Position numbers and translations under genes: made by a program. A stretch of 64,000 nucleotides of DNA, from the NCBI GenBank assembly GCA_036170235.1, contig JAVHOW010000017.1, positions 4,143 to 68,142 of the forward strand, given 5' to 3'. The notes below the pieces were generated by a model. That model was not told the origin of the DNA, searched no databases, and saw nothing but the letters and a program-made list of their open reading frames with translations. Source of the stretch: Minisyncoccota bacterium. GTDB taxonomy: Bacteria; Patescibacteriota; Minisyncoccia; Phycocordibacterales; PALSA-1337. Numbering within the stretch: the stretch's first letter is position 1; every line of letters begins with the position of its first letter. This document shows, piece after piece, positions 2,521-63,976 of the stretch.

Positions 2521-4194
2521 ATGAACAAACCGACATTCCCTACATGGGCAATCATTATCGTAATAGTTCTCGTAATCATCTTTGCCGGTGTTGTCGGTGG
2601 AATAGTTTATTTTGCATATAATCCATCGATTGCGGCTATACCAGGTAAAATAGTGAGTCTGTTCGTCAAACAAAAAGTTGATGTCATAAACCACAGCATC
2701 TATTTGTATACTTTACAGGATCCTGATCAAGATAAAGATGGATTATCTGATATCGCAGAGATACATATATATAAAACTGATCCAAAAAAGTCTGATTCAA
2801 CTGGAGCCGGTGTTACTGATGGGCAATATATTTACAGTGAGTACATGAAAGCATTTGAAGCTGGCAATGAGAGCTCACTATCACAATATAGAGCGAATTT
2901 TGATCTGTATCAAACGTCAATCTCATCGTCAACTATTGCGACGCAATTTCTAGGAACCGCCTCTCTTGAAGAGATGTTCAATATTAGAGCCCTAGAGACT
3001 TACAACTTATATGTTGGATTACCGGACGACTTGAAACAAATTGTTAGCCAAGCTCTTAATGCTAGACAAAAGGGAGACTACCAGAGATCGCTTGATTTGT
3101 TGCAAGACGCTTTATCAAAAAATTCAGATTCCTCTCTCTTGAAATACCATCTTGGTCTGACCTATCACGGCATGAAGCAATTCGACAATGCAATAAGAAC
3201 ATACGAAGGTATTGTTAATGACCCAACTCTTAAAAGCCCACTTTTATATAGCGATATTGCATCGGCATATTTAGCTCAAGAAAATAGCGATAAATTCGTT
3301 GAGAATATGAGAAAGTCCATACAGGCATTTCCTGAAGATCTAAATCAGTATTCAAAACTCGCTTTATATTATAAGAGTAAAAATCAGTTAAACAACGCTG
3401 AAGAAGTCTTGAACGAAGGACTCAAGGTTGAACCTAGATATGCGGATTATTACAATAGTCTTGCAATTATTGCCCACCTGAAAGGTGATGTGAAAGGCGA
3501 ACTCGAACTCTATAAAAAAGCAGTCTCGTATGATTTTCGATATGCGGCAGGACATGAAAACATTTCAATTCTTTACGAGGAAATACAGAATGATATAAAA
3601 GGAGCACTTACAGAAGCGCTTATAGCGTTAGAGATCAATCCTAACTCATATCATGTGAGTCGTGTGATGGCTCTATATGATAAGCTTGGAAATGTTGCAC
3701 AATCCCAGAAATTTGAAAAGGAATTACTTGCAATGAAAAATATAGATGCGCCTTCTTATAATTCTCTAGGTCTAAAGTACCTTGATGCAAATAATTATCA
3801 GAAAGCAGAGACATATTTTAGAAAAGCTATTGTCGTTGATCCAACTTTACCTAATCCATATAACAATTTGGGTATTGTTCTAGCTTCGACTGATAGAGCC
3901 GAAGAGTCGGCGGCGAGCTATAAAAAAGCTATAGAATTAAATCCGAATTATGCTAATGCGTACAGTAATCTGGGTATTTATTTCACAGGCAAGAAACAAT
4001 ATACGCAGGCAATAGATAGTTTCAACATGGCTATCAAATTGAACCCGAATCTTTGGAGACCATACCAGAGTATTGCCTATGTATACAGAATGCTCAATGA
4101 CACAACGAATGAGAAGCTATATTACGAGAAAGCTATACAATATGGCTGTACAGATCCGGCTGTAATAGAAAGACTGAGAATCCTTAACCAGTAG
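2521..4194 (+). CDS. TPR-repeat protein with N-terminal membrane anchor
   Basis: N-terminal TM (WAIIIVIVLVIIFAGVVGGIVYF) followed by many TPR-like repeats (AETYFRKAIVVDPTLPNPYNNLG, AASYKKAIELNPNYANAYSNLG). Confidence 0.75.
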   Translation: MNKPTFPTWAIIIVIVLVIIFAGVVGGIVYFAYNPSIAAIPGKIVSLFVKQKVDVINHSIYLYTLQDPDQDKDGLSDIAEIHIYKTDPKKSDSTGAGVTDGQYIYSEYMKAFEAGNESSLSQYRANFDLYQTSISSSTIATQFLGTASLEEMFNIRALETYNLYVGLPDDLKQIVSQALNARQKGDYQRSLDLLQDALSKNSDSSLLKYHLGLTYHGMKQFDNAIRTYEGIVNDPTLKSPLLYSDIASAYLAQENSDKFVENMRKSIQAFPEDLNQYSKLALYYKSKNQLNNAEEVLNEGLKVEPRYADYYNSLAIIAHLKGDVKGELELYKKAVSYDFRYAAGHENISILYEEIQNDIKGALTEALIALEINPNSYHVSRVMALYDKLGNVAQSQKFEKELLAMKNIDAPSYNSLGLKYLDANNYQKAETYFRKAIVVDPTLPNPYNNLGIVLASTDRAEESAASYKKAIELNPNYANAYSNLGIYFTGKKQYTQAIDSFNMAIKLNPNLWRPYQSIAYVYRMLNDTTNEKLYYEKAIQYGCTDPAVIERLRILNQ

Positions 4195-4355: not shown

Positions 4356-5330
4356 ATGAATACAAAAACCTCACCCAAAGACTTCTTCCTTCACCTTGGC
4401 GCGACAGTAGCGCTATATGTAGCCGCTGGCGCTCTTATCAATCTTTCGTTTAGCGTCATCAATTATTTTTTACCTGACGCGCTCGCGGGATATTTCTATG
4501 GCAATTCAGTCGCATGGCCGATTTCCATGCTGATTGTGCTTGTTCCAATACTTTATGTGCTGGAGTGGTTTATCAATCGAGATATCACTCGTATGCCAGA
4601 AAAAGCCGATCTTTGGATACGCAAGTGGAGAATATATTTGACACTATTCCTAGCGGTGGTTCTTTTTGGGGGTGACCTCATCGCACTGATCAATACCTAT
4701 TTGAATGGAGAAATCACGGCGCGATTTGTTTACAAAATCATCTTGATACTTTTTGTTGCGGGATCGATTGGTAAATATTATTTCTTCAGCATATACACAT
4801 CACATCGCTGGTCAAAATTTGCGCGTCGTGCCAACGCTTGGTTTGGTATCGTATTGGTCATTGCCGCTATTATCATCGGGTTTATTGCAGTTGGCTCGCC
4901 AGCAAAACAACGTGCATTGCGATTTGACAGCCAGCGCGTCAATGATTTGAGTAGCATTCAGTGGCAGGTGATCAATTATTGGCAACAAAAACAGAAGTTA
5001 CCAGTTGTCCTAACTGATCTCAACGACACTGTTTCTGGTTTTATTGTTCCAACCGATCCTGAGACTAAGGCAGCTTATCAATATTCGATTAAGCCTCTAG
5101 TAGGCAATCTCTCGTTTGAATTATGTGCAACATTTGGTGAAGTAGCACAAGATAATTTTGGAAGGGGAGCTTATAGTGGAGGAGGTATGTATCCGACAAA
5201 TATCTCTTACCCAAGTCCTGTTGGAGGAGTTTCAGATGTCTGGAATCATGATAAGGGTCGAGTTTGTTTTGATCGTGCTATAGATCCTGATAAGTATCCG
5301 GTGAATAGAGTTGTTCCGAAGGGCATCTAG
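4356..5330 (+). CDS. multi-pass membrane protein (DUF5671-like N-terminus), hypothetical
   Basis: N-terminus SPKDFFLHLGATVALYVAAGALINL plus 5-6 TM segments, then a soluble C-terminal domain. TGgTATAAT at 4341-4349 ends 6 nt before the ATG. Confidence 0.55.
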   Translation: MNTKTSPKDFFLHLGATVALYVAAGALINLSFSVINYFLPDALAGYFYGNSVAWPISMLIVLVPILYVLEWFINRDITRMPEKADLWIRKWRIYLTLFLAVVLFGGDLIALINTYLNGEITARFVYKIILILFVAGSIGKYYFFSIYTSHRWSKFARRANAWFGIVLVIAAIIIGFIAVGSPAKQRALRFDSQRVNDLSSIQWQVINYWQQKQKLPVVLTDLNDTVSGFIVPTDPETKAAYQYSIKPLVGNLSFELCATFGEVAQDNFGRGAYSGGGMYPTNISYPSPVGGVSDVWNHDKGRVCFDRAIDPDKYPVNRVVPKGI

Positions 5331-5337
5331 AGTAAAT

Positions 5338-5380
5338 CTTGCAATTTCGCGAGTGAGTCCCGCAGGTATTTAAAAAAACA
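5338..5380. repeat. solo half-copy of hairpin-element arm (matches reverse complement of 6889-6930)
   Basis: The first 33 aligned positions are 27/33 identical to the reverse complement of 6889-6930, followed by an A-run. It starts 8 nt after the stop of the 4356..5330 gene. Confidence 0.6.
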
Positions 5381-6866: not shown

Positions 6867-7062
6867 AAAAATCAAGAACCACACACACGTGTTTTTTAAT
6901 ACCTGCGGGGCTTGCTCGTTAAATTACAAGGTATTTTGGCGTGGAGGGTCCATCGACACCAAAATACCTTGCAATTTATACTCGCTTCAGACATGTCCTC
7001 AATGAGCACATTGACCTACTGGGTCGGTATTAAAAAACACGTGTGTGTGGTTCTTGATTTTT
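6867..7062. repeat. long hairpin element, copy C (37-bp perfect outer inverted repeat + structured core)
   Basis: 6867-6903 is the perfect reverse complement of 7026-7062. An inner stem pairs 6921-6939 with 6959-6977 (19 bp, one mismatch). The core carries the motif tgtctgaagcgagta on the minus strand. The element starts 1 nt after the pyk stop. Confidence 0.85.
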
Positions 7063-12509: not shown

Positions 12510-13181
12510 ATGAGCATAATACGCGAAATTGCCAAACAAGTAGAGTCACCAGTTTTGTCTCCCAAATTGATCAGCCTCATCACTGACGTCTGCTTTGGTC
12601 ACGAATGTTTCGAGCCAGGTCAATATGAGGCTGTGTTAATCTTCGGTACGCCACACGAAGTGAATCAACGGCTGATCGCTGATCTTTTGCCAAATATCAT
12701 TCAGCTCCATAATCCCAGTACGGTATATATTACCGGTAGGCCATATGGGACTAGAACTGCTGAGTCAGAACAAATTCTTCAATTGATTGGTCCTGAAAAA
12801 TATGGAAGCGTCAATTTTAAAGTTGATACGATCTCGACTAATACAAAAGAAAATGTCGAACAAGCCATGATTCTCGGTTTGGCTGATCATCAGAAAATCA
12901 TTTTTGTTGCAAAAACTCCACACTATGGTAGGTGCCATCTTACCCTCAGAAAGTATTTGCCGAATGCAACATTAAAAGGCAATTGCTATGATCCTGTTTT
13001 GTCTCCTGGTCTGTCAGGAACAAGAAATAGTTGGTGGGAATTTCCAGAGATTCGAAATCTGATGTGGGCCGAGTTCCTTCGGATTGAGCTCTATGGAGGG
13101 CGCCACGATATCGATTACCCAGAAGTTGTTCGAACGAAAGTCGAGCGAGTTCGGGAGTTGATTCAAGAGCAGTCTCAGTAA
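12510..13181 (+). CDS. DUF218 (YdcF/ElyC-like) domain protein
   Basis: DTISTNTKENVEQA matches the DUF218 STNTxEN signature. Confidence 0.6.
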   Translation: MSIIREIAKQVESPVLSPKLISLITDVCFGHECFEPGQYEAVLIFGTPHEVNQRLIADLLPNIIQLHNPSTVYITGRPYGTRTAESEQILQLIGPEKYGSVNFKVDTISTNTKENVEQAMILGLADHQKIIFVAKTPHYGRCHLTLRKYLPNATLKGNCYDPVLSPGLSGTRNSWWEFPEIRNLMWAEFLRIELYGGRHDIDYPEVVRTKVERVRELIQEQSQ

Positions 13182-15151: not shown

Positions 15152-15328
15152 ATGTAAGAGCTGAACGACACCTATTTTTTTTGTTGTCTCGAAAACTCGC
15201 AACGTACACCTACCTCAAAATTTTTACACCTTTATTCAAAGTCCGTGGCGATTCCAATTTTGAGTCCGGTGTTACTCGCTCAAACAGTTCAAGACAACAA
15301 AAAAATAGGTGTCGTTTCGCTCTTACAT
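15152..15328. repeat. long hairpin element, copy B (37-38-bp near-perfect outer inverted repeat + conserved core)
   Basis: 15152-15189 pairs with 15292-15328 (two mismatches, T8 versus T7). The reverse complement of the core 15190-15291 aligns with the copy A core, sharing TGAACTGTyTGAGCGAGTAACAC...ACTCAAAATTGGAATC...AATTTTGAG...GTGTACGTTGmGAGTTTTC. Confidence 0.85.
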
Positions 15329-16099
15329 CCACTTCAATTTCCTCAACTCTGTCTTCGATTTTCCGGCACGCACAAAGATACGATTGGTGTCAGCTTGTTT
15401 GTCGTTTTCGGTCCAAACTTGTTCGGTGATGGGTTTGTTGATGTTGGTGATTTCAATAGTGCCTTGTATCACACCAGTGCCATATACACCATCTTCTGGA
15501 TAAGCGACTGCGTGGGAATAATGAATCTTGTATGGAATGAAATTTTGGTATTCGACTTGGTGAATGACGAGGATGTGGTCACGATCGTATTCTGCACTTT
15601 CGCCTACCATCGTAATGATATCTCCAGGCACAATTTCTTTTATCGAAATGGCACGACTATTTTTGTCATTGGTGAGAGTCGAGACATCACAGTTTTCAAT
15701 CGGGCGCAGAGAACAACGGATTTTACCAACAAGTCCGTGGCAATTAACAAATGATATATGTTTGTCGATCGAGCCCTTACCCAACTCTTCGCTTTCCACG
15801 TTGAGTATGTAATATGCGTATGCGGAACAATCGATGCCGAGGTTATTATCCGTGAGTATTTTTTTTAGTGATTCATCGGAAATTGACCCGACAGCTACAT
15901 GAGCTTTTACAAAAAGTGTCTGTACTTCATCAAAAATATCTTTTGGACTACCTTTGCCGCTACTCACACGCAAAGTAGCGCGCGCCTTGACGGTTTTATT
16001 ATTGAAATAGGGAACCGAGCATACGGCATTACCAACCTTGAAATGCAGGTATTGGTCGATGACATTGAGTGCGCGGTTAGAGAGGGTTTTGGTGTTCAT
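15323..16099 (-). CDS. hypothetical protein, possible NlpC/P60-like Cys-His hydrolase
   Basis: GIDCSAYAYYIL followed later by DRDHILVIHQV is compatible with a papain-like Cys...His arrangement. This is weak. Confidence 0.35.
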   Translation of the reverse strand: MNTKTLSNRALNVIDQYLHFKVGNAVCSVPYFNNKTVKARATLRVSSGKGSPKDIFDEVQTLFVKAHVAVGSISDESLKKILTDNNLGIDCSAYAYYILNVESEELGKGSIDKHISFVNCHGLVGKIRCSLRPIENCDVSTLTNDKNSRAISIKEIVPGDIITMVGESAEYDRDHILVIHQVEYQNFIPYKIHYSHAVAYPEDGVYGTGVIQGTIEITNINKPITEQVWTENDKQADTNRIFVRAGKSKTELRKLKWM

Positions 16100-16315: not shown

Positions 16316-16972
16316 ATGAGCAACAAGGCATCATTAACAAACACGGAACTGGAAGTCACACAAAAAATGCAGACGCATTTTCCACGCGGCTTGGATACGA
16401 AAGTGCTCGGAGCCGTCAACAGTTGCCCAGTGGAAAATCTCACCGCGGCGCTTATGGAGATGGTGGATAAATTGGCGAGCGGTGCGAAAGCCAAAGTCAG
16501 CAAACTCCTCGAATTGGTGACGTCGGTGAAAGTTGCTGCCGTCAAGGAGTTCATCGCCGCCGACAAATTCAAAGCTGGTGAAACAGTTGATGGGGTGAAG
16601 TATTACTCCTCATTCGGCGGCAACTTCATCAAGCACTTCCTGTCCAAGGTTGAGAGAGATGTGGCAGCGACGGATCTTCGGGTCCACAAACTGCTGTGTA
16701 ATTCCAAAGACCTTGGCATCCGCACAGGGATTGGTGAGGACAATGAAGAGACCAGCCTCGCGCACCTTCAGCAGTGCTTGAAGCGTCAGGGTAACGGTGA
16801 AAAAGGTGATCTCCTGATCAATGGTTGGGCGAACATCTTCTACATCCGTGACATGGACGGCAACCTCTGGGCCGTGCGCGCGTACTGGTGCGGCGTTGGT
16901 TGGTGCCTCAGTGCCGACTCCGTCGAGGACCCGGATGGTTGGAGTGCTGGCGACCAGGTCTTCTCCCGCTGA
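16316..16972 (+). CDS. DGR variable protein (target 1), C-terminal VR
   Basis: 218 aa. The last 35 codons are VR1. Paralogous to 19021..19614 (shared ...NIFYIR...GNLWAV...W...GW.L.A.SVE.P..W.AG.QVFSR). No signal peptide or TM seen. Confidence 0.85.
   Translation: MSNKASLTNTELEVTQKMQTHFPRGLDTKVLGAVNSCPVENLTAALMEMVDKLASGAKAKVSKLLELVTSVKVAAVKEFIAADKFKAGETVDGVKYYSSFGGNFIKHFLSKVERDVAATDLRVHKLLCNSKDLGIRTGIGEDNEETSLAHLQQCLKRQGNGEKGDLLINGWANIFYIRDMDGNLWAVRAYWCGVGWCLSADSVEDPDGWSAGDQVFSR
16865..16970 (+). repeat. DGR variable repeat VR1
   Basis: 106 nt aligned to TR 17304-17409 without gaps. There are 15 differences, all at TR adenines. Confidence 0.9.
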
Positions 16973-17023
16973 TTCTTTGTGGTTTTGAACCTCTGCGTTT
17001 GTGTTCTGACACTTTGAATCTCA

Positions 17024-17066
17024 GACCCTCTGAAACTTGCGAAAGTTTTGGAGGGTTCTTTTTTTA
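17024..17066 (+). terminator. hairpin plus T-run after target 1
   Basis: gaccctc...gagggtt outer stem, aaactt/aagttt inner stem, then a T-run at 17057-17067. Confidence 0.6.
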
Positions 17067-17069
17067 TTT

Positions 17070-17078
17070 TGGTATACT
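17070..17078 (+). promoter_or_regulatory. extended -10 element (TGgTATACT), candidate promoter of the TR RNA
   Basis: The sequence tggtatact lies directly after the target 1 terminator, about 225 nt upstream of the TR. Confidence 0.4.
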
Positions 17079-17303
17079 ACAGAGTGAGGATGTCTAAGCT
17101 GTGGCGGTTACGACTTCCACGGAGCGCCTTGGGTATCAAGGTTCGAGAATCGTTTCAAATATTATTTCAAACGAGTGGGGATATTGATATTCAAAAAAAT
17201 AAAAGAATCGGTGCGATATGTCAGATGGTTTCGAGGACCACGCAAAATAGTGAACCTCCCGAGTATTCGAGGGGTAGTCGTACGGATGACATATCGCACG
17301 AAG

Positions 17304-17409
17304 CTCTGGGCCGTGAACGCGAACTGGTACGACGATGGTTGGAACCTCAATGCCAACTCCGTCGAGAACCCGAATGATTGGAATGCTGGCAACCAGGTCT
17401 TCTCCCGCT
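17304..17409 (+). repeat. DGR template repeat (TR)
   Basis: A noncoding copy of the VRs. It carries 24 adenines, mostly in AAC/AAT codons as read in the VR frame. It is invariant elsewhere relative to both VRs. Confidence 0.9.
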
Positions 17410-17421
17410 ATTCATTTTTTT

Positions 17422-17445
17422 CTTCTCTACTTTATTGTAGAGAAG
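17422..17445. terminator. bidirectional hairpin shared by the TR transcript and avd
   Basis: cttctctac (17422-17430) pairs with gtagagaag (17437-17445), followed by ttttcttt on the plus strand. The avd stop codon lies in the loop. Confidence 0.6.
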
Positions 17446-17779
17446 TTTTCTTTATCATATCCTTTCTCCACCCGCCGACATTTTTTCCAATAGTTTCAAG
17501 TTCTGTACCAAAAGATATATATTGCTCATTGGACATCAAACGGTTTTCCCAAAGCAATTGGATGAAGAATCTGATGTCGTCGACTTTTACAACAGCGATT
17601 TCTAGTAGTGATATTTTTTGTTTTGGTTCAGAAAATGAGGCTCTTCTCAATGCTGTGAGTAAATCAAGAAAGGCATTATCTATTCTGGAACCAAGCCCAA
17701 ATCGTTCAGTGCGCGGGATTTTCCTATGAATAATTATCCATGATGAATAAAGTAGTTTAACTTTTTCCACAACTGGCAA
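17432..17779 (-). CDS. avd: DGR accessory variability determinant (Avd; four-helix-bundle, 23S rRNA-IVS protein family)
   Basis: 115 aa. IPRTERFGLGSRIDNAFLDLLTALRRA resembles the Avd FPK.ERF.L..QIRRAA motif. It lies directly beside the DGR RT. Start is a non-ATG codon (TTG 17779 or GTG 17770). Confidence 0.8.
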   Translation of the reverse strand: MPVVEKVKLLYSSWIIIHRKIPRTERFGLGSRIDNAFLDLLTALRRASFSEPKQKISLLEIAVVKVDDIRFFIQLLWENRLMSNEQYISFGTELETIGKNVGGWRKDMIKKTSLQ

Positions 17780-17799
17780 ATATGCTGGTGAAATTGGTT

Positions 17800-17813
17800 G
17801 GGGGGGGGTGGGG
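17800..17813. repeat. homopolymeric G9-T-G4 tract in the avd/RT divergent control region
   Basis: g(17800-17808) t g(17810-13), immediately upstream of TAGACT (17814-17819). Confidence 0.9.
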
Positions 17814-17820
17814 TAGACTT

Positions 17821-18840
17821 ATGAGTATGTGCCAAATTAAGAATATTCATACCTACGAGGATATCATTTCTATGGAAAATTTGCTTGAAGCCTGGAAAGA
17901 GTTTGTGCGTGGAAAAAGAAAAAGAATTGATGTGCAAGACTTTCAATTACGATTATTTGAAAACATCCAGAAACTTCATTCTGATCTTAAAAACATGTCT
18001 TATAGGCATGGCTGTTATACTCCCTTCAAAATCAACGACCCGAAACCTCGTGACATTCACAAAGCATTAGTGAGAGATCGACTTCTCCATCACGCCGTAT
18101 ATAGAAAATTATATCCATTTTTTGATCGTACATTTGTAGCGGATTCCTATTCGTGTAGGAATGAAAAGGGGACACACAGAGCTTTCAATAGGTTTGGCGA
18201 TTTTGCGTACAGATCATCATTCGCGCACACCAAAACGGTCTACGTACTCAAGTGTGATGTAAAGAAATTTTTTGCTTCTATAGATCATCAGATTTTATTT
18301 GTAATTCTTGAACAATACATTCCTGACGTAAATATCATGTGGCTGGTACGAGAAATCGTTAATAGTTTCTGCTCAACAAAAAAAGGAGTTGGTTTGCCGC
18401 TTGGTAATCTGACGTCGCAATTATTTGTGAATATTTACATGAATGAGTTTGACCAATTCATTAAGCATAAACTCAAAGCAGAATGGTATATCAGATATGC
18501 CGATGATTTTGTCATTCTGAATCAAGACCGAAAATGGTTGGGGTTTGTTCTTCAAGAAATTCAAAATTTCTTGAATGAAAAATTGCACTTAATTCTTCAT
18601 CCAAATAAAATAAGCATTGAAACATTTGCTGGAGGAGTTGATTTTCTTGGCTGGATTCATTTCCCAAATCATCGAGTATTGAGAACTGCTACTAAAAAAA
18701 GAATGTTTAGGAATATTGAGATGAAGAAAGGGCAGAATGATCTGGACAAATTGAATGCGACGATTTGGTCATATTTAGGAATGTTGGGTCACGGAGATGG
18801 GTATGGGTTGGAGTGTGTGATCTCAAGATCAATAGTCTAG
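17821..18840 (+). CDS. DGR reverse transcriptase
   Basis: LPLGNLTSQLFVNIYMNEFD (the DGR-specific LGxxxSQ motif), IRYADDFVIL (YxDD) and KCDVKKFFASIDH. The start is more likely ATG 17821 or 17827 than the track start 17782. Confidence 0.92.
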   Translation: MSMCQIKNIHTYEDIISMENLLEAWKEFVRGKRKRIDVQDFQLRLFENIQKLHSDLKNMSYRHGCYTPFKINDPKPRDIHKALVRDRLLHHAVYRKLYPFFDRTFVADSYSCRNEKGTHRAFNRFGDFAYRSSFAHTKTVYVLKCDVKKFFASIDHQILFVILEQYIPDVNIMWLVREIVNSFCSTKKGVGLPLGNLTSQLFVNIYMNEFDQFIKHKLKAEWYIRYADDFVILNQDRKWLGFVLQEIQNFLNEKLHLILHPNKISIETFAGGVDFLGWIHFPNHRVLRTATKKRMFRNIEMKKGQNDLDKLNATIWSYLGMLGHGDGYGLECVISRSIV

Positions 18841-18882
18841 CCATATTGAAGATTTGAATTGTTATCACTATAAAAAAGAGAG

Positions 18883-18911
18883 TTGACAGATATATACTTT
18901 ATGTGTATAGT
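18883..18911 (+). promoter_or_regulatory. sigma70-type promoter of DGR target 2
   Basis: TTGACA (18883-18888), 17 nt spacer, TATAGT (18906-18911). About 110 nt upstream of the ATG. Confidence 0.55.
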
Positions 18912-19020
18912 GTTTTCAGAGCTATGGTGATAGTTTCACCCTCTAGCAAACCGTCGCGTAGCGACCCCTCAACTTGCGGGTAGCAAGAAGTTTCCTGGCA
19001 ATGAGCTGGGGAAAGGTAGT

Positions 19021-19614
19021 ATGAGCAAAAACAAGTACAATGACATAAATAACGGTCAAAACTTCGCCATATACACCAAACTCGGTGGACCCGAGGGCGT
19101 GAAAAGGTTCTTGGCAGGTGAACTGATTATGCGGAAACCGTCGCCTAATCGCCGACTCAAGTCCGTGGATGCGGTCGAATGCCCGAGGATCGAACGTTTC
19201 GAAGCAAAGGACAACTTCGGCAAAGGTGTGGTCAACGGAGTGAAGTTTTATGATTTCAACGAGAATTTCAAAAAACTTTTCATTCCAAAAGTCGAGACTG
19301 ACGTTGCTGAGACGATTCTCCAATCCCACCAACTCCTTCGGAATTCGAATGATCTGGGCATTCTCAAGGAGATCGAGGATGGCAAGGAAATCACAAACCT
19401 AGCGCATCTTCATTACGCACTCACACTCCAAGGTGATGGTCGGGGTGGTGTACTACTGGTTAACGGATATGCAAACATCTTCTACATCCGCGGTACTGAT
19501 GGTAACCTCTGGGCCGTGTTCGCGGACTGGTGCGACGATGGTTGGAGCCTCAATGCCCACTCCGTCGAGTACCCGGATGTTTGGAATGCTGGCAGCCAGG
19601 TCTTCTCCCGCTGA
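19021..19614 (+). CDS. DGR variable protein (target 2), C-terminal VR
   Basis: 197 aa paralog of target 1, ending ...NLWAVFADWCDDGWSLNAHSVEYPDVWNAGSQVFSR. Confidence 0.85.
   Translation: MSKNKYNDINNGQNFAIYTKLGGPEGVKRFLAGELIMRKPSPNRRLKSVDAVECPRIERFEAKDNFGKGVVNGVKFYDFNENFKKLFIPKVETDVAETILQSHQLLRNSNDLGILKEIEDGKEITNLAHLHYALTLQGDGRGGVLLVNGYANIFYIRGTDGNLWAVFADWCDDGWSLNAHSVEYPDVWNAGSQVFSR
19507..19612 (+). repeat. DGR variable repeat VR2
   Basis: 106 nt aligned to the TR without gaps. There are 10 differences, all at TR adenines. Confidence 0.9.
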
Positions 19615-19705: not shown

Positions 19706-19751
19706 GTGGGAGAAATTAGTATAATTACAGTTTTTGTGTTATATTTCTGAT

Positions 19752-20159
19752 ATGAAAATTGATGCTTATACATCAGCCATTACAGCTTTTGCCGAGAAAT
19801 ACGAGCTTGATTTCGTGGTACTTTTTGGTTCACAGGCAACCGGAAAAACACATTCAAAAAGTGATGTAGACATTGCAGTGATCAAGCGTGGCGAGATTAA
19901 TGTTGCTCGTTTGGCGGTTGAATGTGAGAAAATATTTAAACGTGAAGATGTTGAAGTCATAAGTCTTTCTGGAGCGTCGCCAACACTTATGCGCGCGGTA
20001 TATAAAGATGGAATTCTTTTGTACGAAAAAGAACCGGGGACATATCTCAGATGGAGAGTGTATGCGGCAAAAATCTGGATGGATACCGAATGGTTACGCA
20101 GAATGCGTGATCGTAAACTTATGGATTGGTCCAAGGCATATAATATAGCTAATGCATAA
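19752..20159 (+). CDS. mntA: nucleotidyltransferase-domain antitoxin (MntA-like)
   Basis: The VVLFGSQATGKTHSKSDVDIAV motif (GSx10-SDxD) of minimal nucleotidyltransferases. I chose the ATG at 19752. Confidence 0.8.
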   Translation: MKIDAYTSAITAFAEKYELDFVVLFGSQATGKTHSKSDVDIAVIKRGEINVARLAVECEKIFKREDVEVISLSGASPTLMRAVYKDGILLYEKEPGTYLRWRVYAAKIWMDTEWLRRMRDRKLMDWSKAYNIANA

Positions 20160-20164
20160 TTCAA

Positions 20165-20584
20165 ATGAATTATCCAGAAATAAACAGAAAGCTCGAAATC
20201 TTGCGTGGATACATGGAAACTCTCAAACCATACAGCGTTATGGATTTTGCTGATATATTGAAAAATGAAGAGAGAATTTTAGCTATGGAACGATTGTTTC
20301 AATTAATTGTTGACGAAGCCGCTGACATCAATTCATATATTGCATATCAAGTTTTGAACAAAGTTCCTGAATCATACAAATCTTCCTTTGGTGTTTTAGT
20401 GGAGGGTAATATCCTCGATCAAACTCTCATAGATACTATATCCGAATCTGCCAAAGTTAGAAATCAAATTGTTCATGATTATGAAAAGTTACAGAAAAAA
20501 GACGCAGTATCAGCCATACAGAAATTCTTTCCTGTTTACGAACAATATTTAGATGCGTTAGTAAAAAAGTTTATTGCAAATTAG
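20165..20584 (+). CDS. hepT: HEPN-domain toxin (HepT / DUF86)
   Basis: VRNQIVHDY is the Rx4HxY HEPN motif. It lies 5 nt downstream of the MNT gene. Confidence 0.8.
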   Translation: MNYPEINRKLEILRGYMETLKPYSVMDFADILKNEERILAMERLFQLIVDEAADINSYIAYQVLNKVPESYKSSFGVLVEGNILDQTLIDTISESAKVRNQIVHDYEKLQKKDAVSAIQKFFPVYEQYLDALVKKFIAN

Positions 20585-21985: not shown

Positions 21986-22699
21986 ATGTCTATATTCTCA
22001 ATTGTTGCTACACCTATTGGAAACCTCGAAGACATCACGCTTCGAGCTTTGAAAACGCTTTCCGCCGCTGATATCATTCTCTGCGAAGATACGCGTGTGA
22101 CCAAAAAGTTACTCGATCGTCATGGAATTAAAAAATCAACCCTGTCTTATCATGCGCACAGCAAACTTTCGCGTGTTGATGAAATTATTTCGTATTTGAA
22201 AGAAGGAAAAAATTTGGCATTAGTTTCTGACGCAGGCACTCCTGGAATTTCTGATCCGGGATCTGAATTGATGAAAAAGATTCGTAAAGAATTAGAAAAT
22301 GAAATCAGAAGTGGCGAAGTAAAGATTGAAACTATTCCTGGTCCTTCAGCGCTTACTTCCGCGCTTTCTATAGCTGGTGTACCATGCGCTGATTTTGTTT
22401 TTCTTGGATTTTTACCACACAAAAAGGGCAGAGAAACTTTGTTCAAAGAAATTGCCAATTCGGAGCGCACAATGATTTTCTATGAATCACCGCATCGGAT
22501 TATGAAATCATTGGAAAGTTTGGAAGAACATTTGAATGACATATCAGATGCCAAGCCACCGCGGAAAGTCACAGTCTGTCGTGAATTGACGAAGATATTT
22601 GAAGAAGTTGTGCAGGGTACTGCCAAGGAAGTTAAGAATTATTTTGAGGAACATGCCGATAAAGTTAGAGGGGAGTTTGTGGTGATTGTTAGTAGTTAA
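21986..22699 (+). CDS. rsmI: 16S rRNA (cytidine1402-2'-O)-methyltransferase
   Basis: SIVATPIGNLEDITLRALKTLSAADIILCEDTR, LVSDAGTPGISDPG and FYESPHR motifs. Confidence 0.9.
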   Translation: MSIFSIVATPIGNLEDITLRALKTLSAADIILCEDTRVTKKLLDRHGIKKSTLSYHAHSKLSRVDEIISYLKEGKNLALVSDAGTPGISDPGSELMKKIRKELENEIRSGEVKIETIPGPSALTSALSIAGVPCADFVFLGFLPHKKGRETLFKEIANSERTMIFYESPHRIMKSLESLEEHLNDISDAKPPRKVTVCRELTKIFEEVVQGTAKEVKNYFEEHADKVRGEFVVIVSS

Positions 22700-22864
22700 G
22701 AGTTGGCAAGCGTGAGGATGTGTATTTGCACGTATTGAACTGTCTGAGCGAGTAACACGTAACTCAAAATTGGAATCACCACCGTAGCCACGTAAAATTT
22801 TGAGTGGAGTGTACGTTGAGAGTTTTCAAGACGCGCAAATACACATCCTCACGCTTGCCAACTC
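22700..22864. repeat. long hairpin element, copy A (30-bp perfect outer inverted repeat + conserved core)
   Basis: 22700-22729 is the perfect reverse complement of 22835-22864. The core 22735-22830 contains TGAACTGTCTGAGCGAGTAACAC, the stem ACTCAAAATT/AATTTTGAGT and GTGTACGTTGAGAGTTTTCA. The element starts 1 nt after the rsmI stop. Confidence 0.88.
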
Positions 22865-22907
22865 GTAATAAAAGAGCCGCGCAAATCAGTGAAGAGATGG
22901 CGGCTTG

Positions 22908-27001: not shown

Positions 27002-27021
27002 GAATGTGGAAGTATGGAGGT

Positions 27022-28239
27022 ATGAACAAATCTCGCCGTGTCCTAATATTTTCATTGGTGTATTACCCTCGCTTTATCGGCGGGGCAGAGGTTGCTGTTA
27101 AAGAAATTACTGACCGTATTTCAGAAAAGGAAATTGAATTTGATATGGTGACCTTGCGTCTAGATGCGCGTCTGCCAAAATTTGAACGCATTGGCAATGT
27201 GAATGTGTATAGAGTTGGTTGGGCAAATCCAAGGTCGGACCTTGGACAAGTTTCTCTGGCAGATTCATTACCGCGGTATTTGCATCTAAATAAATACGCG
27301 TATTTGGTAACAGGATTTTTTAAAGCTCTATCACTTCAGCGTGTTCGAAAATACGATGCGACTTGGTCACTCATGGCGACCTACAATTCATTCGCGGCAC
27401 TTTTTTTCAAGTTGACTCATCCGAAAATTCCGTTTATTTTCACTCTCCAAGATGGCGATCCGATCGCGTATCTCAAACATCGGGCTCTGCCATTGTACCC
27501 ATTATTCAAAATGATTTTTACGCGAGCGGATCATATCCAAGCTATTTCAACATATTTGGCAGACTGGGCGCGTGATATGGGTGCGAAGTGTCCAGTTACA
27601 GTTGTACCGAACGCGGTTGATGTAGATTTATTTTCTCAAGATTTATCAATCGGTGAAGCGTCAGAACTCAAGCGTACATTAGGTAAAAAAGAGGGCGATG
27701 TCTTCTTAATCACAACTTCAAGATTGGTGACCAAAAACGCGGTCGGGGATATTATTTCAGCTCTTACTTATTTACCGCCGAATATTAAGTTGATTATTCT
27801 CGGTCAAGGATATCAGGAGGAAGATCTTAAAGCTCAAAGTGTTCAACTTAAACTCATGGGTCAATCAAATGCTGAAGACCGAGTGAAATTTTTGGGTCAT
27901 ATTCCACACGAAGACATGCCACCATATTTGCACATTTCTGAAATTTTTATTCGCCCGTCACTTTCAGAAGGTTTGGGTAATTCATTCTTGGAAGCGATGG
28001 CGGCTGGTATTCCAGTTATTGCCACGCCAGTCGGTGGTATTCCAGATTTTCTTGTTGATGGAGAGACTGGTTTATTTTGTGAAGTAAATAATCCGCACAG
28101 TATTGCGCAAAAAGTTGAGAAATTAATCAAGGATAAGGAGTCGCGGGAGTATATCGTCAGAAATGCGAAGAAGATGGTTGAGGAAAAATATAGTTGGGGA
28201 AGGGTGGTTGGGGAGATGAGGGAGATATTTGTGAGGTGA
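27022..28239 (+). CDS. glycosyltransferase family 4 (GT-B)
   Basis: PSLSEGLGNSFLEAMAAGIPVIATPVGGIPDFLVDGETG (E-x7-E type motif). Confidence 0.85.
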   Translation: MNKSRRVLIFSLVYYPRFIGGAEVAVKEITDRISEKEIEFDMVTLRLDARLPKFERIGNVNVYRVGWANPRSDLGQVSLADSLPRYLHLNKYAYLVTGFFKALSLQRVRKYDATWSLMATYNSFAALFFKLTHPKIPFIFTLQDGDPIAYLKHRALPLYPLFKMIFTRADHIQAISTYLADWARDMGAKCPVTVVPNAVDVDLFSQDLSIGEASELKRTLGKKEGDVFLITTSRLVTKNAVGDIISALTYLPPNIKLIILGQGYQEEDLKAQSVQLKLMGQSNAEDRVKFLGHIPHEDMPPYLHISEIFIRPSLSEGLGNSFLEAMAAGIPVIATPVGGIPDFLVDGETGLFCEVNNPHSIAQKVEKLIKDKESREYIVRNAKKMVEEKYSWGRVVGEMREIFVR

Positions 28240-28372
28240 GGTACGACACATGGCACAAAACACGGGATTCGGATACACGGATATTTTTCTGGTGAAAAAT
28301 TCCTATGCTCGGGCTCATCGCCCTCCGCAGTGTATCCTCACCCGTGTTTTGTGTCATGTGTCGTACCTCACC
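28235..28372. repeat. long hairpin element, copy D (32-bp outer inverted repeat with one G-T; core only loosely related)
   Basis: 28235-28266 pairs with 28341-28372. Inner stems are ggatacac/gtgtatcc and atttttc/gaaaaat. The minus strand carries tgagcccgagcata, resembling the TGAGCGAGTA motif. The left arm overlaps the stop codon at 28237-28239. Confidence 0.7.
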
Positions 28373-61171: not shown

Positions 61172-61225
61172 TTTTCATATCAGGGTTTTTTTATTAACTA
61201 AAATGTGTTAAAGTGCCCTCTACAT

Positions 61226-63976
61226 ATGGCATTTTTGACCAAACTATTCAACCGTTCGAACACCAAGAATGTGAAGGAATTCGAGCCTTTTGTGGCACAA
61301 ATTAACGCTTTTGAGGCGGCGATGAAGGCATTGTCGGATGTGGAATTGAGGGCTAAAACTGATGAATTTAAGGCAAAAATAAAGGAGTATGATGAACGTA
61401 ATAAAAAACCCGAAACTCGAAATCCCGATCGAGCACGATCGCCACTGGGTCAATCCGAGACAAATTCCAAATCAGAAATTCAAAATTCAAAAAAGGCGCA
61501 ACACCCAGTATTGGATGAAATTATGCCAGAAGCTTTTGCCGTTGTTCGTGAAGCATCACGTCGCACACTTGGTCAACGTCACTTTGATGTACAACTTCTT
61601 GGAGGCATGGTTTTGAATTCTGGAGCAATTGCCGAGATGCGCACTGGTGAAGGAAAAACTTTGGTTGCGACACTTCCCGCATATTTAAATGCGCTTACAG
61701 GTAAAGGTGTTCACATTGTGACCGTTAACGATTACCTCTCACGTCGTGACGCAGTCTGGATGGGTCAAATTTACGCATTCCTCGGATTGTCGGTTGCAGT
61801 AATAAACAATGAGGCGAGTTTTGTGTATGATTCGATGCATCGAAGTGACGCGGACGGTACCGCAACTGTTCCTCAGGACACGCCGTCAACCTCTGGTGAG
61901 GTTGCGGCTGGTTCTCCTTCGCCTTCGCTCAGTCCGAAGCGTCCTTCGGATTCAGTTGCGGTACCGTCCGCTAACAACGACCCGCTCGACAAAGAACGCG
62001 ACCAACTTGGTGCTTTTAAAGTTGTTCACGAATTCCTCCGACCAGTCACACGCAGGGAAGCCTATGCCGCTGACATTACTTATGGAACAAACAATGAATT
62101 TGGTTTTGATTATCTTCGTGACAACCTCGAATACAGCCCAGACAAATTACGTCAGCGTGAACCGAACTATGCCATCGTTGATGAAATAGATTCTATTCTC
62201 ATTGATGAGGCGCGCACGCCGCTGATCATTTCCGCACCGATGCGTGATGCCGAATCGACCTACAAACAGTTCGCCTCGATGGTTCGGGCATTTAAAAAAG
62301 ATGAAGATTATACAGTTGAAGAAAAGCATCGCTCGATTTCTTTGACCTCAGACGGTATTACCAAAGCTGAAAAAATTCTTGGTATCGACAATATTTATAC
62401 TGACAAAGGCATCAAGTCTGTGCACCATTTGGAAACTGCCATCAAGGCGCAAGCTTTGTATCACAATGACAAGGAGTATGTCGTTAAGGATGGTCAGATT
62501 GTCATTGTTGATGAATTCACAGGTCGCATGCAACCAGGTCGTCGTTGGTCAGATGGTTTGCATCAAGCTATTGAGGCAAAGGAGGGTGTTGGTATTCAGC
62601 AAGAATCTCGCACCTATGCCTCGATCACATTTCAAAACTTTTTCCGAATGTATCCAAAATTAGCAGGTATGACTGGTACTGCCGCTACGTCAGCGGAGGA
62701 ATTTTTCAAAGTTTATGGTTTGGAAGTCGCTGTTGTTCCAACAAATGTCCAACCGATTCGTCTTGATCGCAATGATCAAATTTTTCAGACCGAGCTCGGT
62801 AAATTCAAAGCTATCGCACGTAAAGTCAAAGAATTGCATGCCAAAGGTCAGCCAGTCCTTATCGGTACAGTTTCTATTGAAAAGAATGAACTTCTGTCAC
62901 AATTTTTGAAATCCGAAGGCGTTCCACATCAGATGTTGAATGCCAAAAACCACGAACGTGAAGGTGAGATCATCGCGCAGGCCGGTAAGAAAGGTGGAGT
63001 TACTATAGCCACGAACATGGCTGGTCGCGGCGTGGACATCAAGCTCGGTGGTAATCCGAATACTCCGGAATTATATGAACAAATAAAGTCAGCTGGTGGT
63101 CTGTTCGTGCTCGGAACTGAACGTCATGAAGCACGCCGTATCGACAATCAGCTTCGTGGTCGTTCTGGTCGTCAAGGAGATCCTGGCGAAACTCAATTTT
63201 TCGTATCTCTTGAAGATACATTGATGCGTGTCTTTGCGTCTGATATGTTGAAGTCGATGATGGGTAAACTTGGCGTGGCTGATGATGAACCGATAGAGCA
63301 CAAACTTATTTCAAAGTCATTGGAGAGCGCGCAGGAAAAGATTGAGGGATTCAACTTCGATTCACGCAAACATGTTTTGGAATTTGATGACATCATCAAT
63401 ACGCAGAGGAAGAATATTTACGGACGGCGCAGGAGGTTGCTGTTGGGGACGGTTGATGATGTGGAGGGTGAATTGATGAATATCGTCGGAGTTGGTTCTG
63501 CGGAGCCAGAACAAGCTTTGGTATCAATCATCGACAAAAAAATCGCGGAATTTGGTCGCGAGAATTTCCTCAATGCGGTACGCATTGTCCTATTACAAGC
63601 TATAGACATGTATTGGGTGGAACACCTCGAAGTCATGGATTACACACGTTCCAGCGTCAATTTGCGCGCATACGGTCAACGTGATCCGTTAGTTGAATAC
63701 AAAAAGGAAGGATTGCGTCTATTCAAAGAAATGCAGGTCGCCATGCGTGCGCAGGTAGTCAAAGTTTTGCCTCATGTAGTCCCGATGATGAATGGCACAG
63801 CGGTCGCTCCTGAACAAAAGAACCTAAAAGAAGTTCATGAAAATGCGCAAATTATCGGCGCAGGTGATGGTTCCAGTGGCAACTCTGATGGAATTAAAAA
63901 GGAGCCAGAAGTTGGCAGAAATGACCTCTGTCCTTGCGGTTCAGGCAAGAAGTACAAGAAGTGTCATGGGAAATAA
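61226..63976 (+). CDS. secA: preprotein translocase ATPase SecA, with two lineage-specific insertions
   Basis: MPEAFAVVREASRRTLGQRHFDVQLLGG, MRTGEGKTLVATLPAYLNALTGKGVHIVTVNDYL, DEIDSILIDEARTPLII, TNMAGRGVDI and the C-terminal CPCGSGKKYKKCHGK. Insertions lie at about aa 55-95 and aa 210-275. Confidence 0.95.
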   Translation: MAFLTKLFNRSNTKNVKEFEPFVAQINAFEAAMKALSDVELRAKTDEFKAKIKEYDERNKKPETRNPDRARSPLGQSETNSKSEIQNSKKAQHPVLDEIMPEAFAVVREASRRTLGQRHFDVQLLGGMVLNSGAIAEMRTGEGKTLVATLPAYLNALTGKGVHIVTVNDYLSRRDAVWMGQIYAFLGLSVAVINNEASFVYDSMHRSDADGTATVPQDTPSTSGEVAAGSPSPSLSPKRPSDSVAVPSANNDPLDKERDQLGAFKVVHEFLRPVTRREAYAADITYGTNNEFGFDYLRDNLEYSPDKLRQREPNYAIVDEIDSILIDEARTPLIISAPMRDAESTYKQFASMVRAFKKDEDYTVEEKHRSISLTSDGITKAEKILGIDNIYTDKGIKSVHHLETAIKAQALYHNDKEYVVKDGQIVIVDEFTGRMQPGRRWSDGLHQAIEAKEGVGIQQESRTYASITFQNFFRMYPKLAGMTGTAATSAEEFFKVYGLEVAVVPTNVQPIRLDRNDQIFQTELGKFKAIARKVKELHAKGQPVLIGTVSIEKNELLSQFLKSEGVPHQMLNAKNHEREGEIIAQAGKKGGVTIATNMAGRGVDIKLGGNPNTPELYEQIKSAGGLFVLGTERHEARRIDNQLRGRSGRQGDPGETQFFVSLEDTLMRVFASDMLKSMMGKLGVADDEPIEHKLISKSLESAQEKIEGFNFDSRKHVLEFDDIINTQRKNIYGRRRRLLLGTVDDVEGELMNIVGVGSAEPEQALVSIIDKKIAEFGRENFLNAVRIVLLQAIDMYWVEHLEVMDYTRSSVNLRAYGQRDPLVEYKKEGLRLFKEMQVAMRAQVVKVLPHVVPMMNGTAVAPEQKNLKEVHENAQIIGAGDGSSGNSDGIKKEPEVGRNDLCPCGSGKKYKKCHGK
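61850..61971. repeat. GC-rich palindromic element embedded in the secA coding sequence
   Basis: gcggacggtaccgcaactg (61850-61868) is the perfect reverse complement of 61953-61971. The interior has its own hairpin tccgaag/cttcgga. It is translated as a Pro/Ser/Thr-rich segment absent from canonical SecA. Confidence 0.75.

Follow-up and report, generated by a model that had tools for sequence, protein, structure and literature searches.

The stretch analysed here, 64,000 nucleotides of a Minisyncoccota bacterium (contig JAVHOW010000017.1, positions 4,143 to 68,142), is the one 64-kb sample taken from its source genome and is termed the window in the following. It carries two long hairpin elements, copies A and B, each composed of a conserved core that is clasped by long inverted arms. 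Copy A lies between the stop codon of rsmI (22697-22699) and a native bidirectional terminator (stem 22875-22880 / 22900-22905), while copy B, on the opposite strand, begins at the stop codon of gene 15323..16099. This placement at the upstream stop codon had been noted in the original prediction, which was made from the letters of the window, and it stands. Both copies are assigned below to a family termed Fam1, and L-numbers (L001, L092, L117, etc.) denote contigs of metagenomic relatives from the Paceibacteria, which belong to the Candidate Phyla Radiation (CPR) and provided 1.9 Mb of related loci.

Positions 22696-22868, plus strand: complete hairpin of copy A (Fam1, A/B subfamily), inserted relative to L001, L004 and L007.
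Positions 22700-22729, plus strand: 5' basal-stem arm of copy A, 30 nt, perfect, GAGTTGGCAAGCGTGAGGATGTGTATTTGC, unrelated to the B arm.
Positions 22730-22834, plus strand: conserved core of copy A, the 105-nt interior.
Positions 22835-22864, plus strand: 3' basal-stem arm of copy A, 30 nt, the perfect complement of 22700-22729.
Positions 15152-15328, minus strand: complete hairpin of copy B (Fam1, A/B subfamily), its site empty in L001 and L004.
Positions 15292-15328 (5' on the minus strand) and 15152-15189, minus strand: arms of copy B, enclosing the core at 15190-15291.

The cores of A and B (~105 nt) share a common origin in sequence, as their local alignment reaches z = 31 against shuffles, and the three core blocks quoted in the original prediction occur in the 64-kb window at A and B only, where 0 to 0.02 matches are expected by chance. 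The arms, in turn, are as unrelated as had been claimed (alignments at z = -0.05 and -0.69, i.e., no similarity). Each copy folds as a single long hairpin (-89.7 kcal/mol and z = -12.0 for A, -84.4 kcal/mol and z = -11.4 for B), which none of 200 shuffles matched, and five perfect inverted repeats (arms of 18 nt or more, spacers of 25-300 nt) are present in the window, against none in 20 shuffled windows. The core of copy A comprises TTGAAC-TGTCTGAGCGAG, an inner stem ACTCAAAATT/AATTTTGAGT, an apical TTGGAAT motif and GTGTACGTTGAGAGTTTTCAAGAC. Pairing in copy A runs on over the rsmI stop codon with one mismatch (TTAAGAG / CTCGTAA). The arms of copy B, 37 and 38 nt long, differ by two mismatches and one indel in a T-run, and one of them takes in the last codon and the stop of gene 15323..16099 (ATGTAA paired with TTACAT).

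Membership in Fam1 was defined by a profile hidden Markov model (HMM) and the covariance model R1, which recovered further copies in the window as well as in relatives and thus bore out the expectation that A and B are not alone. In total, the window and five related genome types hold nine full copies and three remnants. The full copies are A, B, a third window copy termed I2 (minus strand), L092 10775 and 18305, L094 11824, L117 3462 and 5125, and L013 7657, a weak member counted among them. The remnants are a half-element in the window (5331-5380), L001 12859-12906 and a solo arm of L001 in the gap between the genes for pyruvate kinase (PK) and RadC. When hairpin interiors were compared pairwise, most were unrelated, and three core families emerged once more relatives were sampled. 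Fam2 comprises the window element I3, L097 3452-3568 with a homologous core and L117 8059-8188, the core of which is ~90% identical to that of I3; Fam3 is represented by L011 and L101 14216, and both families have the clasped build of Fam1.

Positions 6867-7062, minus strand: I2, a third diverged Fam1 copy between pyruvate kinase and radC (profile E=1.6e-19, covariance model E=5e-25).
Positions 5331-5380, plus strand: Fam1 half-remnant, consisting of the 3' half (...CTTGCAATTTCGCGAGTGAGTCCCGCAGG and an A-rich arm; profile E=5e-5).
Positions 28235-28372, minus strand: I3, a Fam2 hairpin element with 32-nt arms (one mismatch) and a 74-nt core.

The arms of I2 are 37 nt long and perfect (6867-6903 / 7026-7062), and its minus-strand core bears GAGGACATGTCTGAAGCGAGTA ... 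AACGAGCAAGCCCCGCAGG. The half-remnant directly follows the stop of the DUF5671 gene (4356..5330), and the orthologous gap in L117 contains a full Fam1 copy (3462-3643). One arm of I3 includes the TGA stop of gene 27004..28239. Several hairpins with perfect arms of 28-37 nt have interiors outside all three families (L092 7592-7699 and 15544-15655, L122 6660-6769, L101 12378-12498 and L009 6619-6730), and the first of these sits in a divergent promoter region rather than behind a stop codon. Another long hairpin, L117 6050-6142, is known from a sub-threshold Rfam hairpin match only and matches none of the three core families.

The view that the original prediction took of the element as outside known RNA classes was upheld, since Rfam, with its self-cleaving ribozymes and its 6S, SRP and C/D-box RNAs, yields 0 matches at the gathering threshold in the window. 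In E-value mode, A, I3 and the L094 and L117 elements retrieved only far-sub-threshold matches to hairpins of the microRNA-precursor type or to small nucleolar RNAs, and literature searches returned no description of hairpin or miniature inverted-repeat transposable element (MITE) repeats in CPR bacteria. Within the searches made, A and B thus belong to a real, multi-genome element family that lacks an Rfam or literature counterpart. It is scarcely credible that they reflect chance similarity or an assembly artefact, such as chimeric inverted joins in a metagenome-assembled genome. The contig is indeed metagenome-assembled and was seen once; however, assemblies made independently, from different studies and sites, contain homologous elements built in the same way, the elements keep to gene boundaries, and neither the core similarity nor the long inverted repeats are reproduced by shuffling.

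Two blocks, GAGGAC/TTGAAC-TGTYTGAGCGA and GAGCGAGTTCCGCAG, are common to the Fam1 copies and are arranged around covarying stems. In their invariant or near-invariant, strand-specific form they read GAGGAC-TGTYTGAGCGAC-TA and GGAGCGAGTTCCGCAG, and the versions in A and B are TTGAAC-TGTYTGAGCGAG and GTTG(A/C)GAGTTTTC. The predicted fold is corroborated by the middle stem, which covaries with compensatory changes across the Fam1 copies; the apical part and the loops vary, with an apical TTGGAAT common to A, B and L092b and GGGAAT in L094. The conserved blocks are not palindromic, and the loop blocks remain intact even in copies with arms and apical loops in which change has reached saturation.

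Along the motif strand, a C-stem (GGAC/GUUCC) is followed by a 5-nt bulge (UGUYU) and by GA opposite GA. The C-stem GAGGAC/GTTCC reads TTGAA/TTCAA in A and B, and the GAGGAC subtype adds GC/GC and then a second GA/GA. Drawn by eye, this region is inferred to form an internal loop resembling a kink-turn (k-turn), which consists of a C-stem, a 3-nt bulge, tandem sheared G·A pairs and an NC-stem; the core pattern GGAC-UGUYU-GA.../...GA-GUUCC is conserved, but the bulge here counts 5 nt. The motif strand folds better than its complement by 2-13 kcal/mol in all nine Fam1 copies, and the core is therefore probably read as a single strand, either as RNA or as single-stranded DNA (ssDNA). Among the pairs, the G·T type prevails over the A·C type by 10 to 3.

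These features would also be expected of a structured RNA that serves the host, an explanation we regard as possible, though unlikely. The elements would then lie mostly in 3' untranslated regions (UTRs) of upstream mRNAs or between cistrons, where the basal helix would act as an RNase III-type substrate to separate and cap messages, and the ~110-nt core would be released or retained as a protein-binding RNA via the predicted k-turn-like loop. The invariance of the loop blocks amid saturated arms, the folding asymmetry and the excess of G·U-type pairs all fit this scenario, as does the position of A within the rsmI 3' UTR, upstream of the native terminator. Relative to their flanking genes, seven of ten Fam1 copies or remnants point the same way as the gene upstream, which is again in keeping with a transcribed element; yet three of the ten are antisense to both flanking genes, including the L094 copy with its fully intact motifs, and no clear bias results. 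For the same reason, the small RNA excised by RNase III that had been proposed in the original prediction is compatible with the modelled structure, but weakened. Nor was a consistent internal promoter found: weak, non-conserved consensus matches to promoters or terminators were all that was found inside the elements.

A role as terminator, which had likewise been proposed, does not hold in its canonical form. Neither A nor B contains a terminator-like site of the Rho-independent type or a U-tract, and A lies upstream of a native terminator that L001 also possesses.

The elements occupy gaps between genes, and their start usually lies within 0-8 nt of a stop codon. RsmI and its neighbours assign the contig to the Paceibacteria, as a CPR bacterium resembling 'Ca. 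Taylorbacteria'. The gene order around them (DUF5671, pyk, radC, murD-like, ..., mraY, p258, ATP-grasp, rsmI, p142, DUF4015) is kept in many metagenomic relatives. In the closest relative, L001/L089, the PK, RadC, MraY and DUF4015 proteins are 97-99% identical to those of the window, and the radC nucleotides are ~90% identical. None of the ~17 relatives examined (RsmI identity at least 60%) has an element at site A; A therefore represents a gain specific to its lineage and brought its arms along. In L001, AACAAA alone separates the rsmI stop from the shared terminator, and neither a palindrome nor an arm is present. The suggestion that the element targets palindromes finds no support at this empty site, and the anticipated empty orthologous sites exist for B as well, namely in L001 and L004. 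More generally, close relatives manage without elements at all four window sites, an observation that counts against the explanation as a host RNA.

Other gaps have been occupied repeatedly and over long times, which in turn agrees with a host function. The gap between p258 and mraY is filled in the window (by B), L092, L013, L011, L097, L098 and L099, by different families. Between PK and RadC, Fam1 elements are found in the window, L092, L094 and L117, arms only in L110 and a solo arm in L001. The DUF5671-PK gap contains the full element of L117 and the remnant of the window, and the gap behind DUF4015 harbours elements in L009 and L013 and a remnant in L001. In such series, elements decay to half-elements or solo arms. 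In L001, the motif TGCTATAATT(T/A)CCCC, a -10-like box located 6-11 nt before an ATG, abuts both truncated Fam1 remnants (540-570 and 12900-12930), and deletions may have joined these remnants to a downstream promoter of the leaderless type.

In L092 and L117, the core at the PK-RadC gap runs in the same direction as the genes, whereas the window and L094 carry it in antisense; hence, it has been inverted between the arms. The two orientations come from different lineages, not from one population. Together with the perfect flanking repeats, they recall an inverton, i.e., a segment in which the arms would serve as recombination sites and the core would bear an orientation-dependent signal (e.g., a promoter) that is flipped to alter the expression of a neighbour. 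Weak sigma-70-like matches exist in I2 (TCGACA-18-TATACT, directed towards radC) and in A (TTGGAA-17-TAAAAT). However, these matches are not conserved and B has none, no recombinase gene is found among the annotated neighbours, and no single site-specific invertase could recognise all the arms, as they differ between loci. The interiors, moreover, measure only 40-130 nt. Spacer inversion is also reported as a by-product of template switching (PMC8604942). We consider an inverton highly improbable.

The arms follow rules of their own. Their inner 8-20 nt are conserved within subfamilies (CAYRTG-T6-RRTAYC; ATTTTTAT), and their outer parts differ everywhere. The CAYRTG-T6-RRTAYC motif is found also in L117a, in the window remnant and in the solo arm of L001. 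Among orthologous or paralogous copies, whole arms are homologous (window I2, L110, L001 and the L001 12859 copy), such that the I2-type arm recurs at a different locus of L001. It follows that the arms are part of the element and change faster than the core.

The mode of arm evolution is most evident at the PK-RadC gap, where the window, L110 and L001 represent three roughly equidistant close relatives. The arms are fully complementary both in I2 (37/37) and in L110 (40/40), and the homologous arms of these two elements differ at four positions, each of which is mirrored in both arms. In L110 (1069-1188), the I2-type arms enclose an unrelated 40-nt interior and the Fam1 core is gone. As L110 lost the core, yet kept and lengthened a perfect stem, stem perfection appears to be a DNA-level property of the inverted repeat rather than a consequence of core function. 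The stems also lack G·U pairs, and this, too, argues against an RNA function as the cause of the clasp.

At their outer ends, the stems run into genes. The right arm of the L009 element complements the last four codons of p258, and the TAA stops of two convergent genes both fall within the stem base of L117 8059-8188 (GTAAAAAC...GTTTTTAC). Since a non-coding arm here complements coding sequence and stop codons, the copying between arms would proceed in one direction wherever one side is constrained. In inverted repeats, template switching from one arm to the other has been reported to homogenise and expand the arms and to invert the spacer (PMC8604942, PMC13100816, PMC8794818), and by analogy the arm behaviour observed here matches this process in all three respects. 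Such a template-switch (quasipalindrome) process would account for the perfect arms, the mirrored substitutions, the outward growth of the stem and the inversion of the spacer. In these reports, it is treated as a mutational process on ordinary inverted repeats, and neither a family with a conserved core nor the duplication of a core to new sites is covered.

A different origin of the clasp would be the insertion event itself, in that a mobile core of ~100 nt copies the target flank in inverted orientation by fold-back or snap-back priming, possibly aided by a resident reverse transcriptase (RT), and all arms would be derived from the target. The outermost arm bases do copy constrained coding sequence, one I2 arm is single-copy sequence in L001, and the RT of a diversity-generating retroelement (DGR) is encoded between B and A. 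Nevertheless, the 30-nt arms of A have no counterpart in the empty L001 site, the same arm type is present at a second locus, and the presence of the RT does not track the hairpins across relatives. An initial interpretation of the single L001 arm as an inverted target copy was withdrawn: the arm has the inner-arm motif of the family and outgroups hold full Fam1 elements at this site, from which it follows that it is a deletion remnant. Arm formation upon insertion is thus improbable. The original prediction had suggested that the element creates palindromes, and this notion survives for a few bases at the outer end of the stem, where the coding side has been copied into the non-coding arm over stop codons, but not for the rest. 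Another candidate, the capture of arms in the manner of spacers, was rejected, because neither the window nor ~1.4 Mb of DNA from relatives contains a second match to the arms, viral contigs not being part of that search.

Several known element classes share traits with the family. As in MITEs, which stay below ~600 bp, the units are short (110-200 nt), contain no conserved open reading frame (ORF) and are repeated (nine full Fam1 copies plus remnants), and A is present in the window lineage alone. Regarding terminal repeats, the inner arms are conserved over 8-20 nt within subfamilies and the arms of A and B are wholly unrelated. The original prediction had called this arrangement the opposite of ordinary MITEs; the lack of arm similarity between A and B is genuine, but the contrast is partly an effect of sampling two copies.

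Enterobacterial repetitive intergenic consensus (ERIC) sequences, also termed intergenic repeat units (IRUs), and the Correia elements of Neisseria (Neisseria miniature insertion sequences, NEMIS) are palindromic intergenic repeats of ~100-160 bp. Like the present elements, they are short, non-coding and form one long hairpin, reside in transcribed intergenic space near gene ends, are multi-copy and differ in presence between relatives. Within mRNAs, Correia hairpins serve as substrates for RNase III, and the stability of messages is influenced by ERIC copies. ERIC and Correia elements are conserved at their termini and show a TA target duplication. Here, by contrast, the stem differs between copies over its outer 10-30 bp, the centre is most conserved and no duplication is evident; furthermore, the stems pair perfectly, unlike the imperfect ones of those elements, a CPR bacterium is the host, and there are very few copies per 64 kb.

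The REPINs, inverted doublets of repetitive extragenic palindromic (REP) sequences that are mobilised by REP-associated tyrosine transposases (RAYTs) of the Y1 HUH type, resemble the family as hairpin-forming intergenic repeats with long persistence within a lineage. Moreover, both possess strand-specific conserved motifs beside the hairpin, as expected for single-stranded recognition. The layout is reversed, however: REPIN arms are conserved (5' GTAG-type motif) and the loop is variable, whereas here the arms vary and the centre is conserved, and copy numbers appear far lower. A RAYT/Y1 homologue was not found in the 64-kb window with the Y1 transposase of L007 as query. IS200-type Y1 transposase genes occur at L007 5531-6640 and L111 19966-20424, with several GC-rich hairpins around them, in a variable region that holds a DGR. 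The L007 Y1_Tnp gene is not associated with the hairpin elements, and a link to IS200/Y1 elements was discarded, as the L007 protein has no window homologue and a 12-nt left-end resemblance (GTCTGAAGGCGA) to the Fam1 motif was judged to be chance.

Two further candidates were dismissed. The elements are not integron attC sites, as their ends read GAG...CTC instead of R''/R' (RYYYAAC/GTTRRRY) and they are flanked by syntenic housekeeping genes (rsmI, mraY, pyk, radC). A retron non-coding RNA or a DGR RNA does not fit either, because the sole RT belongs to a DGR with its own template repeat (TR) and two variable repeats (VRs), which lack sequence similarity to the element.

On balance, we lean towards a duplicative hairpin element comparable to MITEs, REPINs and ERICs, the basal stem of which is unconstrained in sequence but homogenised from arm to arm. 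With a similarly modest preference, A and B are seen as two old, diverged copies of a clade-wide, non-coding palindromic repeat family that resides in a few permissive intergenic gaps of Paceibacteria. This preference builds on what is documented above: the copies form one family and share sites, they have been gained, lost and inverted, their arms change in concert, and their cores are strand-asymmetric. The unit would be the whole hairpin, organised in three layers: a constrained, strand-asymmetric core, a covarying middle stem with the apical part, and a long basal stem free in sequence. Arm-to-arm copying, by intramolecular template switching or gene conversion, would keep the basal stem self-complementary and would also drive it outward up to constrained sequence, which could be why the stem base abuts or includes stop codons. 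New copies would arise by insertion of the entire hairpin including its arms, A being one such gain, and may later undergo inversion, shrink to half-elements or solo arms, or disappear. The combination of unique arms and a conserved core would then reflect neutral concerted evolution of the arms versus purifying selection on the core, and not arms made from the target.

A number of observations weigh against a duplicative element. A clear direct target-site duplication is not seen in the comparisons of filled and empty sites at A, B, I2 and I3, where the flanks instead continue the inverted repeat. Neither an autonomous partner nor a transposase was found in the window and the related loci; element-end pairs separated by an ORF are missing from the 1.9 Mb of related loci, and none of the annotated neighbours that adjoin a copy is a transposase, recombinase or RNase gene. 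Exact-pattern scans of GTDB genomes, JGI metagenomes and viral contigs revealed no further A/B-subtype copies, and scans of these collections with the Fam1 consensus likewise had no match. By such scans the A/B subtype is known from this contig only, and the donor of A was not seen. The sharing of gaps by distant lineages may be due to orthology or to repeated insertion into a hotspot. Finally, loop blocks that are conserved at the same gaps in distant lineages exceed what a purely selfish, decaying repeat would show and point to a host-level role.

Such an RNA role at the host level does not exclude a duplicative element. A combination of both is conceivable, if doubtful: the ~110-nt core with its k-turn-like loop might be a functional single-stranded RNA or DNA ligand that is conserved across Paceibacteria, the perfect clasp might be actively renewed by self-templated copying, and the hairpin itself, not a terminal sequence, might be recognised, processed (e.g., by RNase III) and propagated. 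The elements would then be a new class of genetic unit defined by structure, a mobile RNA-gene cassette with a processing stem that rewrites itself.

The genomes of CPR bacteria (Patescibacteria) are minimal and thought to be repeat-poor. A clade-wide non-coding family in the same few gaps offers a new handle on gene boundaries, RNA processing and genome dynamics in this group. The hairpins also bear on the origin and maintenance of long perfect hairpins, as they provide a clean natural example of concerted long-stem evolution, with mirrored substitutions, growth over stop codons and a perfection that outlasts the core. If the core is indeed a bound RNA or ssDNA motif, the family would define either a ribonucleoprotein specific to CPR bacteria or a mobilisation system that recognises structure, new in both cases.

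Between copies B and A, the window contains a complete DGR (16316-19614), the RT of which is separated from B by 2.5 kb and from A by 3.9 kb.

Positions 16316-16972: DGR target gene 1, with a VR at 16862-16970.
Positions 17211-17299: 13-nt perfect inverted repeat (GTGCGATATGTCA...TGACATATCGCAC) with a 63-nt spacer, immediately upstream of the TR.
Positions 17301-17409: DGR TR.
Positions 17782-18840: DGR RT.
Positions 19021-19614: DGR target gene 2, with a VR at 19504-19612.

Mismatches between the TR and the VRs fall on TR adenines in 15 of 16 and 10 of 11 cases. The cassette is absent from L001 and present in L007, where the RT is 78% identical. A link of this DGR or its RT to the hairpins was not sustained: it is a normal, adenine-specific DGR, shares no sequence with them, and its RT does not co-occur with them in relatives. 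Part of the inverted repeat ahead of the TR (CCCGAG..TATTC.AGGGGTAGTCG..GGATGACAT) also precedes the DGR of L007 in conserved form, and the repeat probably contributes a structured segment to the DGR RNA. Adjoining the DGR, a Polbeta/MNT nucleotidyltransferase (19734..20159) and a HepT-like RNase (20165..20584) form a toxin-antitoxin pair in a variable region that L001 does not have.

Two more structured sequences are found at a distance from the hairpin elements. Inside secA (61205..63976), a palindrome with 19-nt perfect arms and an 84-nt spacer (61850-61971) starts on a codon boundary and corresponds to residues ~204-255, where the Pfam SecA_DEAD match splits and the protein has ~24 residues more than Thermotoga SecA. 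It may be an in-frame palindromic insertion, reminiscent of the Rickettsia palindromic elements. Near the beginning of the window (~685-1000), a non-coding island of 59% GC in a genome of ~37% GC adopts a predicted rod fold of ~300 nt (-131.7 kcal/mol for 261 nt, z = -7.6). Rfam contains no match to this island, L111-L115 share its 3' part at 82-87% identity, and the modelled fold makes it a candidate structured RNA gene.

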